A stretch of 64,000 bases of DNA from Mobula hypostoma. Taxonomy: Eukaryota. Made by a program: the position numbers and the translations under genes. This document shows, one piece after another, positions 11,700 through 52,631 of this stretch. Under the pieces are notes generated by a model that was not told where the DNA came from, did no database searches, and worked only from the letters and a program-made list of their open reading frames with translations. Every line of letters starts with the position of its first letter. Positions within the stretch are counted from its first letter, which is position 1. The DNA is taken from positions 131,814,001 through 131,878,000 of the forward strand of contig NC_086097.1 of the NCBI RefSeq assembly GCF_963921235.1. Direction: 5' to 3'.

Positions 11700-12193
11700 C
11701 GAGGGGTGATTGATAAATTCGTGGCCTAGGGTAGAAGGAGTCAACTTTAGAAAATCTAGCACATTTATTTTTCAACATAGTCCCCTCCTATATGTACACT
11801 CTTAGTCCAGCAGTCGTGAGGCATGGAGCATACGGATCCTTTCTTTGTAGAAGTGGTCCACAGCAGGGTTGATTGATAAGTTCGTGGCCTAAGGTAGAAG
11901 GAGATGAGTTATACTGCTCTCGTTACATGCACGTGCAGTTCAACTCTTTGAGTGAAAATGCAGAAAGCTTGAATTTAATAACTGATGTCCTTCTACCTTA
12001 GGCCACGAACTTATCAATCACCCCTGCTGTGGACCACTGTCTGGAGGTCCAAGACGCTGACTTCTACAAAGAAGGGATCCGTATGCTCCACGACTGCTGG
12101 ACTAAGTGTGTAAATGTAGGAAAAATAAATGTGCTAGGTTTTCTAAGATTGACTCCTTCTACCTTAGGCCACAAATTTATCAATCACCCCTCG
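11700..12193 (+). mobile_element. Mariner-derived non-autonomous element (MITE) with TA target-site duplication
   Basis: TA|cgaggggtgattgataaattcgtggcctag...ccttaggccacaaatttatcaatcacccctcg|TA, with roughly 70-bp TIRs and a mariner C-terminal remnant, DFYKEGIRMLHDCWTKCVNVG. Confidence 0.9.
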
Positions 12194-28859: not shown

Positions 28860-29885
28860 CTGATGTTTTAGCTGCCGTGTCTGGGAGAATGGTCTGTTAG
28901 TTTCTGTGCGAGGGTGAGATTCTGGGGGTTTGGGGTTTGATGTTTTAGCTGCCTTTCCGAGTGGGTGATCTGTCAGTTTTTGAGCAATGGAGAGGTTGGA
29001 AGGGTTAGGGGTTTGGTGTTTTAGCTGCTGTGTCCTGGTGAGCAGTTAGTTTTTGTGCAAGGGAGAGTTTGGGGGTTTGGGGTTTGTGAAATTTGTTTCC
29101 TTTTCTTTTCCATGCGGAGGAGGGACTCAATGACTTAGATTAGATTAGATTATGAGGACCCACAGTCCTCTCTTATTGTCATTTAGTAATGCATGCATTA
29201 AGAAATGATACAATGCTTTTCCAGAAAAATATCACGAAAACACATGACAAACCGACTTAAAAACTAACAAAAACCACATAATTATAACATATAGTTACAA
29301 CAGTGCAAAGCAATACCGTAATTTGATAAGAACAGACTATGGCACGGTAAAAGTCTCAAAGTCTCTTGAAAGTCCCATCATCTCACGCAGACGGTGAACC
29401 TCCAGCGCCGCCAACTAGCTGATGCAGCATACTGGAAGCTTCTGACCACAGTCCGACTCCGAGTCCGTCGGAAAACTCTGAGGCTCCGACCAGCTCTCCA
29501 ACACCGAGCACCGAGCACCATCTCTGCTGAGTGTTTCGACCCCGGCCCTGGTGACAGGCAATAGGCAAAGCCGAGGATTTAGGGCCTTCGTCTCCGGAGA
29601 TTCTCGATCGCACAGTAGCAGTGGCAGCGAAGCAGGCATTTCAGAAGTTACTCCAGGTGTTCCTCCGTGCTTCTCACAGCTGTCTCCATCAAATCCGGAT
29701 TGTGCATGGCCCCATACGATATTCATTCGGAACGGCTGCACACGCTGTGTCGCGCCACCATCTTCTTCTCCCTCCTCCTCCAACTTCCATGGTTTTTCTG
29801 TATTTTACAGCTATCTGGAAAAGATGAATCTCAAAGTTGTGTTCTGCATACATATTCTGATAATAAAATGAACCTTTGAACCTTA
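28860..29885 (+). mobile_element. Non-coding retroposon with about three 75-bp tandem units and a Rex1-like tail, split by a nested element
   Basis: tgttttagctgc...ggggtttg units at 28860-29090; gaatctcaaagttgt...aataaaatgaacctttgaacc tail at about 29825-29882. Confidence 0.55.
29137..29782 (-). mobile_element. Non-autonomous LINE derivative (5' UTR fused to a Rex1-like (TCTAA)n tail)
   Basis: The minus-strand 5' end carries AAGATGGTGGCG, the body is CpG-rich, the 3' end has a (TCTAA)n tail like the Rex1 copy at 57815, and there is a possible ACTT TSD. Confidence 0.6.
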
Positions 29886-39800: not shown

Positions 39801-41569
39801 TCCTGACTACTCTATATCAAAAAAGAAAAAAAGCTTGCCTCTTCTTCTCTGCCTGAGCCTGTTCACATTGAACTCTGTTAAGCCACTCTATCACTGGCAC
39901 ACACTGACAACGTCTGCTCCAACAATGGCCTCTCTACTTGAGCGTACCTTTCTTTATTTGCAGCTGAGATTAGGCCTCTGATGCCAACACTTTGCGTGCT
40001 TGTGTAGCCCAAAAGAGACCGGTCTTGCCGAATTTGCTCCTTTAATCCTCGCTCTCCTGACTTCTGGAGGGTTCTGACACCGACACACATTCCTCTTCCC
40101 TGAGCTGCTGAAAAAAATACTTACTCATTGAATCATAGAACATGGACAGGTGGATACTGTCTGGATACAGGCTCTTCATCCCAACGGGTCCATGCTGATC
40201 ATGGTACCCACGCAGCTAATTCCAATTTCCTGTGTTTGTCCATATCTCTTCAAGCCCCTTCCTTCCATGTACATTCAAAGCGTTGGTTAAATAATACCTT
40301 TGTACTTATCTCAACTATTTCCACTGGTAGTTCACTCACCAGTGGTACTCACCACATTCTGCATGGAAAAGTTACACCTCAGACCTATTTTAAATCTTGC
40401 CCCCCCCCCCGAACTTATGCACCTGAATTTTGGACACCCCTACCCTGTGGAAATAACTATTACCATTCACCTTATCTATGCTCCTCATAATTTCAAACCG
40501 TTCTATAATGTCACACTTATTCCAGGGAGTATAGACCCTAGTTTGGTCAATCAAACTGTATTATCTAGATATCTCTATCTAAGGATGTTACCGGGACAAC
40601 TAAATTACACTCCACTCTACAGTGTGTCAACTGAGATTTAGGCGAAATGCAAATTCTTTCAGTTAAGTGTAAGGTCCTAATTGAGTCCAGTGGCTACTGG
40701 AGTTAAAGGGTTAATACTTAAGATCTGAGCAGGGTTGAAACTTTGTTTTCCTCGGCAGGCTCCCGTCCACGCTTCAAATATTCTGTAGAATGTTCTGTTT
40801 CTAGTGCACTTGTCAGGGTCCATTTGCTGCTAGTGTCCTTGATGGTGACATCAGCGATAGACCTACTCTGCCCTTTGACCCAGGTCGGTAAGACAGAGAG
40901 GCCAAGTAATAAATTCCCATTAATTGTGAAGCAGACATGTCCCAAGAAAGACAAACCCTTTATATTTTAATTCCAGTCATCAACTTTGAAATGGACCTGT
41001 GGGTTGTTATACTCCAGTAATAGACTACCGCTGCTGACCAAACCACTTGGCAAGATGACCAGATTAGTTTACAGAGGACAGGTATGCAGGTGTGCACCTG
41101 TGTCTCTGGCAAAAACAGACATGTGGAAAAATCTCTATTTAACAATAGCAGAATGAGTAATGCAGCATGGGGAAAAAAGACCTTTTAGTCCATTGACATC
41201 ACACCGACCATCAAGCAGCCATTTACAATATTCCAACATTAATCCATATTTAGTTCTCTCCATATTCTCAGCTTCACATCCTCCCCCCCACCCCCCCAAT
41301 CTCCTACTTAGATTCTTCAGATCACCTGCTGTACATGCTAGGGACAATTTATAGCAACACACAGATCTTTGGGATGTGGGAAGAAACAAAAGTACCCAGA
41401 GGAAACCCATGTCGTTACATGTGAACTCCACACAAACAGACCCAGAGATCCAAATTGAATCTAGATCTCTTGTGCTGTAAGATAGTTTACTTTACTAGCT
41501 GCACCCACTGACCAATGCAGGAAATGACATTAAATCAACAACACATTGGTTTCTAGAAATCAACAACAC

Positions 41570-43757
41570 TTTGGTTTTGAGAAAGGACCTAAAAAGCGTG
41601 GATTGGGACAGGTTGTTCTCTGGCAAAGATGTGATTGGTAGGTGGGAAGCCTTCAAAGGAGAAATTTTGAGAGTGCAGTGTTTGTATGTTTCTGTCAGGA
41701 TTAAAGGCAAGGTGAATAGGAATAAGGAACCTTGGTTCTCAAGGGATATTGCAACTCTGATAAAGAAGAAGAGGGAGTTGTATGACATGTATAGGAAGCA
41801 TGGAGTAAATAAAGTGCTTGAAGAGTATAAGAAGTGCAAGAAAATACTAAAGAAAGAAATCAGGAGGGCTAAAAGAAGACATGAGGTTGCCCTGGCAGTC
41901 AAAGTGAAGGATAATCCAAAGAGCTTTTACAGGTATATTAAGAGCAAAAGGATTGTAAGGGATAAAATTGGTCCTCTTGAAGATCAGAGTGGTCGGCTAT
42001 GTGCGGAACCAAAGGAAATGGGGGAGATCTTAAACAGGTTTTTTGCGTCTGTATTTACTAAGGAAACTGGCATGAAGTCTATGGAATTAAGAGAAACAAG
42101 TAGTGAGATCATGGAAACTGTACAGATCGAAAAGGAGGAGGTGCTTGCTGTCTTGAGGAAAATTAAAGTGGATAAATCCCCGGGACCTGACAGGGTGTTC
42201 CCTCGGACCTAGTGGACCTAGTGTTGAAATTGCAGGGGCCCTGGCAGAAATATTTAAAATGTCGCTGTCTACAGGTGAGGTGCTGGAGGATTGAAGAGCG
42301 GCTCATGTCGTTCCGTTGTTTAAAAAAGGATCGAAAAGTAATCCGGGAAATTATAGGCCGGTAAGTTTAATGTCGGTAGTAGGTAAGTTATTGGAGGGAG
42401 TACTAAGAGACAGAATCTACAAGCATTTGGATAGACAGGGACTTATTAGGGAGAGTCAACATGGCTTTGTGCATGGTAGGTCATGTTTGACCGATCTATT
42501 GGAGTTTTTGGAGGAGGTTACCAGGAAAGTGGATGAAGGGAAGGCAGTGGATATTGTCTACATGGACTTCAGTAAGGCCTTTGACAAGGTCCCGCATGGG
42601 AGGGTTAGTTAGGAAAATTCAGTCGCTAGGTATACATGGAGAGGTGGTAAATTGGATTAGACATTGGCTCAATGGAAGAAGCCAAAGAGTGGTAGTAGAG
42701 AATTGCTTCTCCGAGTGGAGGCCTGTGACTAGTGGTGTGCCACAGGGATCAGTGCTGGGTCCATTGTTATTTGTCATCTCTATCAATGATCTGGATGATA
42801 ATGTGGTAAATTGGATCAGCAAATTTGCTGATGATACAAAGATTGGAGGTGTAGTAGACAGTGAGGAAGGTTTTCAGAGCCTGCAGAGGGACTTGGACCA
42901 GCTGGGAAAATGGGCTGAAAAATGGCAGATGGAGTTTAATACAGACAAGTGTGAGGTATTGCACGTTGGAAGGACAAAACAAGGTAGAACATACAGGGTT
43001 AATGGTAAGGCACTGAGGAGTGCAGTGGAACAGAGGGATCTGGTAATACAGATACAAAATTCCCTAAAAGTGGCGTCACAGGTAGATGGCGTCACAGGTA
43101 GATAGGGTCATAAAGAGAGCTTTTGGTACATTGGCCTTTATTAATCAAAGTATTGAGTATAAGAGTTGAAATGTTATGATGAGGTTGTATAAGGCATTGG
43201 TCAGGCCGAATCTGGAGTATTGTGTTCAGTTTTGGTCACCAAATTACAGGAAGGATATAAATAAGGTTGAAAGAGTGCAGAGAAGGTTTACAAGGATGTT
43301 GCCAGGACTTGAGAAACTCAGTTACAGAGAAAGGTTGAATAGGTTAGGACTTTATTCCCTGGAGCGTAGAAGAATGAGGGGAGATTTGATAGAGGTATAT
43401 AAAATTATGATGGGTATAGATAGAGTGAATGCAAGCAGGCTTTTTCCACTGAAGCAAGGGGAGAAAAAAAACAGAGGACATGGGTTAAGGGTGAGGGGGG
43501 AAAAATTTAAAGGGAACATTAGGGGGGGGCTTCCTCACACAGAGAGTGGTGGGAATATGGAATGAGCTGCCAGACGAGGTGGTAAATACGGGTTCTTTTT
43601 TAACATTTAAGAATAAATTGGACAGATACATGGATGGGAGGTGTATGGAGGGATATGGTCTGTGTGCAGGTCAGTGGGACTAGGCAGAAAATGATTCGGC
43701 ACAGCCAAGGGCCAAAAGGCCTGTTTCTGTGCTGTAGTTTCTATGGTTTTCTATGGT
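41570..43757 (+). mobile_element. Young 5'-truncated CR1 LINE ORF2 (RT) with few lesions
   Basis: Long ORF pieces DKSPGPD, NPGNYRPVSL, SQHGF, DFSKAFDKVPH, GVPQGSVLGP and KFADD; a 16-bp tandem duplication at about 43072-43103 shifts the frame; (TTCTATGG) tail. Confidence 0.93.
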
Positions 43758-46710: not shown

Positions 46711-47254
46711 ATGCCATACTTTATTACATTAAGGTAGTAAAAAGAAAACAATGCAGAATATATGTCATAGTCCGGTCAGTGATGTCTGTATTCCGGTTCA
46801 CAATCCAGTCCATCGACCCTTGCTCCAGGTTTTCCTATCTACCCTGTTTCTGTCCTTGTTGAGCTAAATGAGGCAGCTGATGCTAGTTGGGGCTGGCTGC
46901 ATAATTACCTCCAGAGACCAGGACGTGATTGCTGAATTGTTCTTGTCCCTACTCCTTGTATCCCTTCCTCTGCCTTTTGTTTCCTTGCCTGAAGCCCTGC
47001 CTTGTCTTGCCAGTAACTCTCGCCTCACCTGAAGTTCTTGTCTTGCCTTGCTTTGCCTGTAGCCTTGCCCAGTCTTGCTGTCTGATCCTGGAGCCACCCT
47101 GTACCTAGCTCCCTTCCTGTTCCTTGCCTCCGCCCAGGTAAGCCAGGCTGTCTTACCATTACCTGGGGTTGGTCCTGTCCCTTCCTGTCCCTTGCCTCTG
47201 TCGGGTGGTGATCCATGCCCTGCCCAGGTGATCTGCACCCTGTCCAGGGGGAGC

Positions 47255-49584
47255 CAAGCCTCGCCTCAAGTCTCAAGTCTCCTGCCTCCTGCCAAGCCTC
47301 GCCTCGAGTCTTCTGCCTCCGTCCTCCAGCCTCGCCTCGCCTCGAGTCTCCTGCCTCCTGCCTCCAGCCTCGTCTCCAGTCTCCTGCCTCCAGCCTTTGG
47401 CCTAGCCCCGAGCCTGAGGACTCCAGCCTCTGGCCTTGCCTCGAGTCTCCTGCCTCTGGCCTCCGGCCTCGCCTCGAGTCTCCTGCCTCCATCCTCCGGC
47501 CTCGCCTCGAGTCTCTTGCCTCCGTCCTCCAGCCTCGCCTCGAGTCTCCTGCCTCCATCCTCCGGCCTCGCCTCGAGTCTCTTGCCTCCGTCCTCCAGCC
47601 TCACCTCGAGTCTCCTGCCTCCGTCCTCCAGACTCGCCTCGAGTCTCCTGCCTCCGGCCTCCAGCCGTGAGTCTCCTGCCTCCAGCCTCCTGCCTAGCCC
47701 CAAGCCTGAGGACTCCAGCCTCTGGCCTCGCCGCGAGTCTCCTGCCTCCAGCCTCCGGCCTCGCCTCGAATCTCCTGCCTCCAGCCTCCAGCCTCGCCTC
47801 GAGTCTCCTGCCTCCAGCCTCCTGCCTAGCCCCAAGCCTGAGAATTCCAGCCTCCGGCCTCGCCTCGAGTCTCCTGCCTCCAGCCCCCGGCCTCGCCTCG
47901 AGTCTCCTGCCTCCAGCCCACGACCTCTCCGCGAGTCTCCTGCCTCCAGCCCCCGGCCTCGCGGCGAGTCTCCTGCCTCCAGCCCCCGGCCTCGCGGCGA
48001 GTCTCCTGCCTCCAGCCCCCGGCCTCGCGGCGAGTCTCCTGCCTCCAGCCCCCGGCCTCGCGGCGAGTCTCCTGCCTCCAGCCCCCGGCCTCGCGGCGAG
48101 TCTCCTGCCTCCAGCCCCCGGCCTCGCGGCGAGTCTCCTGCCTCCAGCCCCCGGCCTCGCCTCGAGTCTCCTGCTTCCAGCCTGCTGCCTAGCCCCCAGC
48201 CTGAGGACTCCAGCCTCCGGCCTCCAGCCGCGAGTCTCCTGCCTCCAGCCTCCGGACTTGCCTCGAATCTCCTGCCTCCAGCCTCCAGCGTCGCCTCGAG
48301 TCTCCTGCCTCCAGCCTCCTGCCTAGCCCCAAGCCTGATGATTCCAGCCTCCGGCCTCGCCTCGAGTCTCCTGCCTCCAGCCTCCAGCCTCGCCTCGAGT
48401 CTCCTGCCTCCAGCCTGCTGCCTAGCCCCCAGCCTGAGGACTCCTGCCTCCGGCCTCCAGCCGCGAGTCTCCTGCCTCCGGCCTCCGGCCTCCAGCCGCG
48501 AGACTCCTGCCTCCGGCCTCCGGCCTCCAGCCGCGAGTCTCCTGCCTCCAGCCTCCGGACTTGCCTCGAATCTCCTGCCTCCAGCCTCCAGCGTCGCCTC
48601 GAGTCTCCTGCCTCCAGCCTCCTGCCTAGCCCCAAGCCTGATGATTCCAGCCTCCGGCCTCGCCTCGAGTCTCCTGCCTCCAGCCTCCAGCCTCGCCTCG
48701 AGTCTCCTGCCTCCAGCCTGCTGCCTAGCCCCCAGCCTGAGGACTCCTGCCTCCGGCCTCCAGCCGCGAGTCTCCTGCCTCCGGCCTCCGGCCTCCAGCC
48801 GCGAGACTCCTGCCTCCGGCCTCCGGCCTCCAGCCGCGAGTCTCCTGCCTCCAGCCTCCGGACTTGCCTCGAATCTCCTGCCTCCAGCCTCCAGCGTCGC
48901 CTCGAGTCTCCTGCCTCCAGCCTCCTGCCCAGCCCCAAGCCTGAGGATTCCAGCCTCCGGCCTCGCCTCGAGTCTCCTGCCTCCAGCCTCCGGCCTCGCC
49001 TCGAGTCTCCTGCCTCCAGCCCCCCGGCCTCGCCGCGAGTCTCCTGCCTCCAGCCCCCCGGCCTCGCCGCGAGTCTCCTGCCTCCAGCCCCCCGGCCTCG
49101 CCGCGAGTCTCCTGCCTCCATCCCCCCGGCCTCGCCGCGAGTCTCCTGCCTCCAGCCCCCCGGCCTCGCCGCGAGTCTCCTGCCTCCAGCCCCCCGGCCT
49201 CGCCGCGAGTCTCCTGCCTCCAGCCCCCCGGCCTCGCCGCGAGTCTCCTGCCTCCAGCCCCCCGGCCTCGCCGCGAGTCTCCTGCCTCCAGCCCCCCGGC
49301 CTCGCCGCGAGTCTCCTGCCTCCAGCCCCCCGGCCTCGCCGCGAGTCTCCTGCCTCCAGCCCCCCGGCCTCGCCGCGAGTCTCCTGCCTCCAGCCCCCCG
49401 GCCTCGCCGCGAGTCTCCTGCCTCCAGCCCCCCGGCCTCGCCGCGAGTCTCCTGCCTCCAGCCCCCCGGCCTCGCCGCGAGTCTCCTGCCTCCAGCCCCC
49501 CGGCCTCGCCGCGAGTCTCCTGCCTCCAGCCCCCCGGCCTCGCCGCGAGTCTCCTGCCTCCAGCCTCCGGCCTAGCATCGAGCC
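47255..49584. repeat. GC-rich minisatellite (33/34-bp units with a 303-bp higher-order repeat)
   Basis: Core ggcctcgccNcgagtctcctgcctccagcc; six copies of a 33-mer from 47955; a 303-bp period (marker tccggacttg at 48251, 48554, 48857); sixteen copies of a 34-mer from 49026. Confidence 0.97.
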
Positions 49585-49806
49585 TAAAATAAAAATTCAG
49601 TTGATTAAGTTACATTTGTTGAATTAGCTAATAGGATTTGTCTTGTTAATTTTTTTTGAGAGAGCGCAGGATAAAGAATGGATAGCCATTTTCTAGAGAG
49701 AGTGCAGAGTCCAGGAAGGGGAAAGAAGGAGATTGGAAACAGAGGACAAATATAGTGGAAGAACTTGGTGAAACACTCACAGAACCTAATTTAGAAGGAC
49801 AGGTAG
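49585..49806 (+). repeat. 222-bp direct copy of 51809-52030
   Basis: Identical by eye from taaaataaaaattcag to gaaggacaggtag, with an offset of 2224 bp. Confidence 0.95.
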
Positions 49807-50744
49807 CCTCTAGACTCTTGCCAAGCCAAGTCTCTAGCCTCTAGCCACAAGCTTCAAGCTGGTTGATTTCTGCCTCGTTCTGCCTGCCTGCCAAGCCTCA
49901 TCCTTGCCTAGTTCTGGGGTCCGAGCCAGAGGCAAGACCCAGGTACTGGGTCCCTTTCCAGTCTCTGGCTCGGAGTCCAAGCCTGGGCTCCTAGCTCTTT
50001 TGTCCAGTTCTCTTCCAGGTTCCTGGTTTTCCTGTCCATGTCCTTGCCATCGCCCTGTATCCTAGTCCTGTCCCTAGTACTTCAGTGTCTGTGTCTTGCA
50101 CTTGGGTCCGTTCCCAGCCACCGCCCTTATGACAATATAAGGTTGTAGTTACAGGGAAAGTGCAGTACAGGTAGGCAAATAAAGTACAAGGGGAACAATG
50201 AGGTAGATTGGGAGATCAGGAGTTCAAGGGTTCATCTTTTAGGATATGAGAGGTCCGTTTCAAAGTCTGATAGCAGTAGGATGCAAGCTGTCCATTTGCC
50301 TAGCGGTATGAGCTCTAAAGTTTTTGTATCTTCTGCCTGAGTGGAGGGAGAAGAAGAGAGAATGACTGAGGTGGGAGTGGTTCTTGATTATTTTGTGTGC
50401 TTTCCTGAAGAGGTGGGAAGTGTAGACAGAGTCAGAGGAAGGAGGTTGGTTTAAATGTGAGGAAGGTCTGCATTTCACAAATTAACAAACAAAGTAAAAA
50501 AAAAAATTACTACCATGCGTTGGAATTTGGAGAGCGAAGAGGCATTTGAGGGCGGCAGATGAGCCAGATTCTATCTAAATAAAAACTTGAATCAGAGCTA
50601 TATATTTGGCTGTGAAGCTAGAGAGAGAGCAGGATAGTGGGGAACAAGTAAAATTATTGTCACCTGTGCCCATGTAGTCTATAGAGAAAAGCTTGTCTTG
50701 AATTACATTCATACAGATCCCTTCATTAGAACAATGCCTGAAGT

Positions 50745-50892
50745 TGTTGTTGAGTACCATCAACTCATGGCAATCCTATAGGTTGTCCATAGGTTTTTCG
50801 TCGCCCTTCTTCCACTCAGACCCAACCGGATTCGAACGCTGGACCATCTGCCTCAAAGTCCAATGCCAATGCCACTACACCACCAGCCAGCT
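50745..50892 (-). mobile_element. Short tRNA-derived SINE with RTE-like (CAA)n tail
   Basis: A box TGGTGTAGTGG, B box GTTCGAATCC, a (CAA)n tail, and an imperfect 13-bp TSD caatgcctgaagt / caatgcataaagt. Confidence 0.7.
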
Positions 50893-50899
50893 CAATGCA

Positions 50900-51660
50900 T
50901 AAAGTAATACAAGGTAAAACAATGTGGAGAATAAACCGTTGCAGTTACAGAGAATGAGCAGTACAGCTTGACTGTAAGATGCAAGGTTATAACACGTATT
51001 TTGTGGGAGCAAAAAGAGTCTATCTTATTGTACTAGGGAACTATCCAAGTTTTATACCAGCAGGATAGAAGCTGTTCTTGGGTCTGGTAAAATGCACTTT
51101 CACACTTCTGTCAGTTGGAGGGGGAGAAGCAAGAATATCTGAGGTGGGTGAGTAGTGTAGAGAAAGTTCATGGAGGGGAAGTGGATTTCTGTGATGTACT
51201 GAGCTGTGTCCGCTGCTCTCTGTAGTTTTTGCTGTTGTGGGCAAAACAGATACCATACCAAACGTGATGCATCCAGATCGGACGCTTCCTATAATGCATT
51301 GATAAAATTTGTTGAGGGTCAACGGGAATCCGACAAATTTCTTCAGCCTCCCGATTAAGTAGGGGCACTGGTGAGTTTTCTTGGCCATGACATCAACACA
51401 GTCGGACCAGGACAGGCTATGGGTGATGTTCACTCTGAGGAACTTAGAGCTTTCAACCTCTCAGTCTCAGCACATTGACATAATGAGGGGTATGGGCATT
51501 GCCCCCTTCTTGTAGTCAATGACCAGCTGTTTTGTTTTGCTGACACTGATGATGGATGTTATGACACCAGATCATTAGGCTCAGTATCCGACTCTGTACT
51601 CTGACTTTGTTATTTTAAGTATGGGCCACCACAGTGGTATCATCCACAAACTTGGAGATG
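50900..51660 (-). mobile_element. Old Rex1/Babar-type fragment
   Basis: NITHSLSWSDCVDVMAKKTHQCPYLIGRLKKF. Confidence 0.75.
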
Positions 51661-52631
51661 GAGTGCAATACCCTGATTTGAGACCATGCTTTATTTTATT
51701 TAATATAGTTATCCTGTTAGGCCCCTTGTTTTCTGCAGATCTCCTCAAGATACAAATCTATATAAAAAGTATTCCTTTAATTACATTATACAATCAAGTT
51801 TTGCTGTTTAAAATAAAAATTCAGTTGATTAAGTTACATTTGTTGAATTAGCTAATAGGATTTGTCTTGTTAATTTTTTTTGAGAGAGCGCAGGATAAAG
51901 AATGGATAGCCATTTTCTAGAGAGAGTGCAGAGTCCAGGAAGGGGAAAGAAGGAGATTGGAAACAGAGGACAAATATAGTGGAAGAACTTGGTGAAACAC
52001 TCACAGAACCTAATTTAGAAGGACAGGTAGGGATGTGTGAAAATCCTCATGTAGACTATAGTTTCACGAAGAATGCGCAGATAACTTGTAATTAGCCAGC
52101 TGGCACATGACATTGGAGAAAGTTCAACACCTTATCCTCAGATGTTGCATGGATATTTATTTATGTTTTGCTTGGACTGGTTTTTCTGTGCAGAGCTGTT
52201 TCGGTACTGTGAAAACAAAGTATATTCACAGTTATGGTTAAGACATTTGGAGCCAACAGTGAGAAGATTACAGGAGTTGGAGCAGAATCTGGCCGCAGAG
52301 TTGCGAGTATACAGGGAATAGATTAGGGTGCTGAAGACCCAGCCTTGTTGGGCACAATGTTGAGGATAATGGTGATGGAGGAATTGCTGCCATTTCTTAT
52401 TGAGTGCAATCTGTTGCTCAGGAAATGAAGGATCCAGTTTCAAAAGGGATGTGTTGAGTCCCAGGTTAGGAGTCTGACAATCAGCTTGTAGCCAATTGAC
52501 AGCAGTAAGGTTACAAATTCAATGGTCTTCTTCAGTCCCTTGAACTTTAAGGATTGTGAACGTATTCCTACAATGTGAGAGTACATGCAATAATTGTTCA
52601 AGCTGTATTCTTCAACTGAAAGTTGAAAAAT

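Follow-up and report, generated by a model that had tools for sequence, protein, structure and literature searches.

An exact 222-bp copy of neighbouring DNA inside a solo-LTR-like element of Mobula hypostoma: a probable repair-mediated proximal duplication

How did a piece of low-copy DNA come to stand a second time, base for base, inside a repeat element some 2 kb away from it? The question is raised by one locus in the window, by which we mean the whole 64,000-nucleotide stretch of Mobula hypostoma contig NC_086097.1 that was analysed (assembly GCF_963921235.1, positions 131,814,001 to 131,878,000). An earlier note on this DNA had claimed an exact, same-orientation 222-bp copy of downstream sequence, and a comparison of the window with itself bears this out: positions 49585-49806 (the acceptor, + strand) are identical to 51809-52030 (the donor, + strand) at 222/222 bases, and the match cannot be extended by even one base to the left or to the right. 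The two copies are offset by 2,224 bases, and 2,002 bases separate them. As the self-BLAST E value of the pair is 5e-112, chance is excluded as the source of the match. In a scan of the 64-kb window for exact repeated 30-mers outside the tandem array described below, this pair was the sole non-tandem direct match; the remaining repeated 30-mers were two within a TATT microsatellite and two in inverted relation. Insertion of a circular DNA was considered and rejected, the copy being colinear with the donor and not permuted.

The surroundings are mostly what we take to be decayed LINE fragments, recognised from their translated frames, and include presumably a long CR1-like LINE ORF2 remnant in several frames of the + strand (41499-43562). 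Further features were observed elsewhere in the window. Three short near-identical pieces lie close together, 11702-11739 and 12154-12191 each matching 11988-12025 at 94.7% with two of the three in inverted relation, and an exact inverted 30-mer is found at 11870 and 11991; the region 11702-12191 may be a further local rearrangement of small size. A unit of 73-77 bp is present in about three diverged copies at 28861-29086, and a GC-richer stretch at 29386-29870, where open frames of 85-129 aa overlap on both strands and were not recognised as LINE-derived, is a possible exon or other element.

The acceptor lies within a solo-LTR-like element at 46763-50134, a unit of 3,372 bp (array and insert included) which is bounded by the 7-bp inverted ends TGTCATA...TATGACA and flanked by the pentamer ATATA on the left (46758-46762) and on the right (50135-50139). 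Against one other repeat copy in the window the two flanks align in direct continuation of each other (reference 64-95 and 96-139), and the element is therefore a single insertion which duplicated 5 bp of its target. Between its left and right unique parts no match exceeds 17 bp, and they are not direct repeats of each other; it is thus a lone LTR-like unit, in the simplest view a solo LTR, and a two-LTR element was rejected on the same ground. Solo LTRs are recognised by TG...CA ends, short inverted repeats, a target-site duplication of 4-6 bp, many copies and the lack of a second LTR. Here the 7-bp inverted ends, ATATA on both sides, a very high read depth and no second LTR were found. In a literature search on solo LTRs with minisatellites, the element was not recognised by title or opening of abstract among the matches listed.

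The read depth also establishes that the insert does not belong to the element family. Over the right part of the element (49807-50134) the summed depth of read-derived contigs is approximately 1e5-1e6, against 7-44 for single-copy DNA, whilst at the centre of the insert it is 7-35; the insert is therefore not family sequence. The earlier note had asked whether the 222-bp segment might be a normal part of other copies of the element, and this is answered in the negative by the low depth of its centre and its absence from the family. The family is very high-copy in both of the organisms compared below, the summed contig depth over 49807-50134 exceeding that of single-copy DNA by about four orders of magnitude.

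Much of the element is taken up by a C-rich, CpG-rich minisatellite (47258-49585), resolved by lag comparison into units of 25, 27, 33, 35 and 41 bp. Within it a higher-order repeat of 303 bp (48205-48960) shows 5 mismatches in 453 at lag 303, and a run of 16 nearly identical units of 34 bp (49003-49546) shows 2 in 524 at lag 34. Its CpG observed/expected ratio is 0.75, against 0.29 for the window. The history of the array looks layered, with mixed units, a higher-order repeat and two runs that are homogeneous and young (units of 33 bp at 47933-48160 and of 34 bp at 49003-49546). Where the element resumes to the right of the insert, at about 49804-49850, there are degenerate array-like units of TAGCCTC type, which the contigs of other copies indicate to be native to them; in other family copies array-type letters stand immediately before 49804, and the array units vary there. 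Because array-like units continue at about 49804-49850, the insert interrupts the repeat region and does not lie at its natural end. The statement that the copy begins exactly where the array ends thus stands as regards the position of the left junction, GAGCC|T, but fails in that array-like units resume to the right of the insert.

The first matter to be settled is whether the second copy is real. The public runs that carry the stretch include four from organism A (one sample, word share 0.89-0.94), which is the best-matching organism and whose sample is possibly the source of the assembly, and four from organism B (one sample, word share 0.59-0.60). Four of these eight main runs were compared, X1 and X3 from organism A and X5 and X8 from organism B, all in the form of read-derived contigs; runs X9-X13, with a word share of <0.1, were left out of the comparison. 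In organism A the donor contig has a mean word depth of 28.9 (X1) and 12.7 (X3), compared with length-weighted neighbours at 18.9 and 8.05, giving ratios of 1.53 and 1.58, which are still 1.43 and 1.37 when the deepest neighbour is used. The ratios expected for X1 and X3 are 1.57 and 1.51 if the copy is present on both haplotypes, 1.28 and 1.20 if it is present on one, and 1.0 if there is none. Expressed in words, the excess is 178 and 217 against the 192 expected for exactly one extra copy on both haplotypes, and therefore fits two copies in all. In organism B the corresponding ratios are 0.97 and 0.98 (X5, X8). Short paralogous bits overlap about 51781-51880 among the contig matches.

A second line of evidence comes from the edge of the match. 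In record 15 of X3 the fit begins exactly at 51809 with 41 unplaced letters ahead of it, and the number of unbranched letters expected to the left of 49585 from a 31-mer graph walk of the window, up to the ambiguous array, is likewise exactly 41; the left junction is thus indicated in the reads by the length of this overhang (41) alone and not by its letters. Among the contig matches listed, the left junction was not seen in the X1 donor contig, the right junction (49806|49807) was not seen, and no single contig piece spanned the stretch. The latter two observations, together with the placement of the join at a minisatellite and the identity of the copies, are what an artefact of assembly or consensus would give where a difficult tandem array ends; this is the join error that had been offered as the alternative to a real insertion. 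However, an assembler misjoin would neither raise the word depth of read contigs, which is 1.5x in 2/2 organism-A runs and 1.0x in 2/2 organism-B runs, nor produce a 41-letter overhang equal to the prediction, and misassembly is accordingly held to be highly improbable. One small variation was noticed in the same contigs: at the T8 run (49649 in the acceptor, 51873 in the donor) a contig with one extra T is found at depth 9.24 and 7.2 in the two organism-A runs, with none in organism B among the matches listed. The extra T may be a haplotype or copy difference, or else a homopolymer error in the reads or the assembly.

The junctions of the insert carry very little homology. On the left the sequence reads GAGCC|T AAAAT, and since all nine earlier units of the same type continue AGCCTGA, the T is common to array and donor and the microhomology is 1 nt. 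On the right it reads GG TAG|CCTCTAG. Contigs from other copies of the element begin to fit at 49804, with loose ends before that position in at least 17 contigs of X1, at least 18 of X3 and at least 9 of X5, and the TAG is therefore native to the element and shared with the last three bases of the donor, which gives a microhomology of 2-3 nt. Both the shared T and the shared TAG are included in the acceptor as delimited here, and neither junction contains filler bases. The microhomology of 1-3 nt and the rejoining at TAG that had been described for the locus are therefore both upheld. A search for longer junction homology, with flanks of 20-40 nt and four scoring schemes, gave nothing above background, 12-96% of approximately 8,640 background windows scoring as high; a CCTC/TAGACT likeness 14 nt past the right end of the donor was likewise rejected, as 12-48% of random windows match at 30-40 nt.

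The 5-mer AGCCT is found at either side of the insert and might represent a short duplication of the target. This would suit an RNA-templated insertion, a retrocopy made by a LINE enzyme with AGCCT as its target-site duplication, in a window which is full of LINE remnants. However, AGCCT is common in this region, with 48 occurrences in 2,422 bases; there is no intron loss, and every base of the insert, its A-rich start included, is found in the donor, so that no poly(A) or poly(T) tail has been added. The added 3' tail together with a target-site duplication, by which LINE-mediated retrocopy (TPRT) is recognised, is thus lacking. Moreover, the donor is merely 2 kb off, whereas all 17 tailed cases described in the available text of the survey by Pace et al. 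are distant (Pace et al., 2009; PMC2671141). We give a retrocopy very little credence.

The direction and age of the event can be judged from organism B, in which the donor occurs once and runs on without a break into its right flank (X5 record 24, X8 record 32). The donor itself is low-copy, A+G-rich DNA of 36% GC. Organism B differs from the window at 36 positions in 2,360 bases, or 1.5%, as measured over the four long pieces of X5. In X5 record 20, which is at single-copy depth, 30 letters of the element end are joined to the same flank, one letter short of the 31-letter bridging rule, and this suggests that the element predates the split between A and B. No contig piece of organism B lay on the acceptor among the matches listed, nor was the empty junction seen among them. 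Were the copy as old as the split, the probability of finding no substitution in it would be 0.034. It is likely, then, that the copy is younger than both the LTR insertion and the A-B split, organism B being single-copy for the donor and seeming to share the LTR; the likely order of events is insertion of the element, species split and capture. A recent capture which post-dates the LTR insertion had been proposed earlier, and the single copy of the donor in organism B agrees with it.

This short interval also bears on a history of two events, in which a tandem duplication of about 49804-52030 through TAG was followed by a deletion from the array end to position 51809 of the first copy, leaving 222 bp. 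Such a history would give the identical sequence and would assign to each junction a microhomology of its own, and in its favour it may be counted that tandem arrays often contract. It would demand, however, two rare events at one spot within a time shorter than that since the A-B split (36 of 2,360 bases differing), and the deletion would have had to stop near the start of the duplication. We regard it as improbable.

A second exact copy inside a solo-LTR-like element is the observed product, from which we infer the break, the priming end and the pathway. The probable origin, in our judgement, is a repair-mediated proximal duplication through a germline break in the repeat region of the element. 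A germline double-strand break would have fallen in that region. After resection one 3' end, in the simplest case the right one as it has the longer match (TAG), would have primed synthesis on the donor, either in cis or with the sister or the homologue as template. About 220 nt would then have been copied by a polymerase before the new strand came away and was connected to the opposite end via approximately 1 nt of homology, that is, an abortive SDSA-type synthesis completed by end joining. Had the same synthesis run the full 2.2 kb, a plain tandem duplication would have resulted instead. The exactness of the copy, its depth in organism A and the single-copy donor in organism B all accord with the recent templated insertion from nearby DNA that the earlier note had envisaged.

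A replication-based double template switch (FoSTeS/MMBIR, a local two-jump event) would yield an identical product without a frank two-ended break. A fork would stall in the C-rich array, jump 2.2 kb forward at a 1-nt match, copy 222 nt and return at TAG. The direct orientation, the short distance, the 1-3 nt microhomology and the exact copy are all compatible with such a route, and copy-and-paste local jumps and templated insertions figure in the available text of a survey of cancer genomes (PMC7025897). Against it, the first jump would start from a weak 1-nt primer, additional mutations and jumps are not visible near the junctions in the window, and the array contains 0 canonical G3 quadruplex motifs, though 70 weaker G2 motifs. 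We consider template switching rather unlikely, with the caution that break repair and replication template switching would be indistinguishable by sequence alone.

Returning to repair of a germline break, the question is whether the array itself was to blame, as the earlier note had supposed. As the array accounts for about three quarters of the element, chance alone would be expected to place a break in or beside it; canonical G-quadruplex fragility was rejected, there being no motif of four G3 tracts in the array. A fragile array as the cause of the break thus finds no support. A broader idea is that germline breaks or stalls recur at the minisatellite of this very high-copy LTR family, so that thousands of scattered arrays act as traps for nearby DNA far above other repeats. 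This seems to us quite doubtful. If it were true, the comparison of two close genomes would provide a natural genome-wide assay of templated repair in an unmeasured lineage, and the present event would be weightier only if captures cluster at the arrays of this LTR family.

Nothing points to a function of the insert. The donor contains a putative exon-like stretch at 51921-52026 on the + strand, recognised by its sequence pattern (ttttctag| ... CAG|gtaggg; 106 bp, one open frame), and duplication of a small exon with its splice sites may be entertained as a lesser possibility. A phmmer search of 1.84 billion protein representatives, which perhaps include few fish proteins, returned 0 relatives of its 61-aa frame at E 0.001; the CAG|GTAGGG donor-site pattern occurs 25 times in the window, the splice-like site is altered to GTAGCC in the inserted copy, and the stretch was carried by no RNA run among the 13 matching runs (0/13) of a DNA-kind search. 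On these four counts exon duplication is unsupported. The product is most likely a neutral scar. A lone LTR-like unit is without the second LTR and the internal signals needed for movement. The capture is therefore most likely a dead end, and the suggestion that events of this kind let an LTR-like element acquire host sequence finds no support in any lasting sense, this being a single LTR-like unit with an insert that the family lacks. The two identical direct copies could, by inference, later delete the intervening 2.2 kb through recombination.

The closest known counterpart is the repair-mediated duplication described by Pace et al. (2009; PMC2671141), who surveyed transposable elements interrupted by at least 50 bp of sequence found once elsewhere, and to whose text, as far as it was available, the following comparison refers. 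In their survey of primates, mouse, rat, dog, cow, chicken and zebrafish, the human donor lay within 5 kb in 824/1,136 cases and zebrafish contributed 80 cases; the inserts were 50-619 bp long with a mean of 162, the junctions had 2-9 nt of microhomology, with or without deletion, filler or target-site duplication, poly(A/T) was absent from 39/39 proximal cases examined, and seven human-specific pairs had a donor identical to the acceptor. The frequency of such captures in their survey ranged from 0.08 to 0.65 per Mb of TE. The present case is alike in that an insert of at least 50 bp, here 222 bp in the 46763-50134 element, interrupts a transposable element which is marked by high-copy flanks around a low-copy centre, in that the donor is 2,002 bp away (>50 bp and <5 kb) and the length falls within 50-619 bp, and in that it lacks a poly(A/T) tail, is lineage-specific and has identical donor and acceptor. 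The right microhomology of 2-3 nt is inside their range of 2-9 nt and the left one of 1 nt is below it. Altogether, four of the seven features of repair-mediated duplication were found and none of the seven was contradicted (PMC2671141). The remaining three features of the class are a single further genomic place for the insert, a family consensus in which the two element fragments lie within 30 bp of each other, and an outgroup with an empty orthologous site. The case differs in that the host species is outside those surveyed and that the acceptor is in a minisatellite inside the element, a term which occurs 0 times in the main text of that paper (PMC2671141). A literature search on minisatellites and the capture of flanking DNA found no paper. 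The earlier reading is supported as to a templated insertion, but had missed that vertebrate mutations of this class already have a name and have been counted (PMC2671141).

Other classes are less close. The ‘doublets’ of Thomas et al. (2004, as cited in PMC2671141) are similarly short, close, non-tandem and near-exact, with break repair proposed, but the surveyed duplicons are, according to that citation, <100 bp. The templated insertions and local n-jumps of cancer genomes (Li et al., 2020; PMC7025897) share a copied template, two junctions and a return to the host chromosome; as there described they are somatic and in tumours, whereas the present event is inherited, apparently on both haplotypes. 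Pol-theta (MMEJ/TMEJ) insertions, in the available text of PMC12426944, likewise have synthesis primed by minimal base pairing and a microhomology scar, yet are generally <25 bp and copied from the break flanks, unlike the 222 bp from 2 kb away seen here, which places the event outside TMEJ (PMC12426944). Since a literature search on repair-mediated duplication returned no paper on cartilaginous fishes by title, and neither templated insertion nor microhomology turned up in the papers listed by a second search, the event may extend the known range of the process, as would be expected. Its significance is modest, that of a clean and young case of repair-mediated local duplication: an ordinary member of a known vertebrate mutation class, of which it is a real, recent and well-preserved example.
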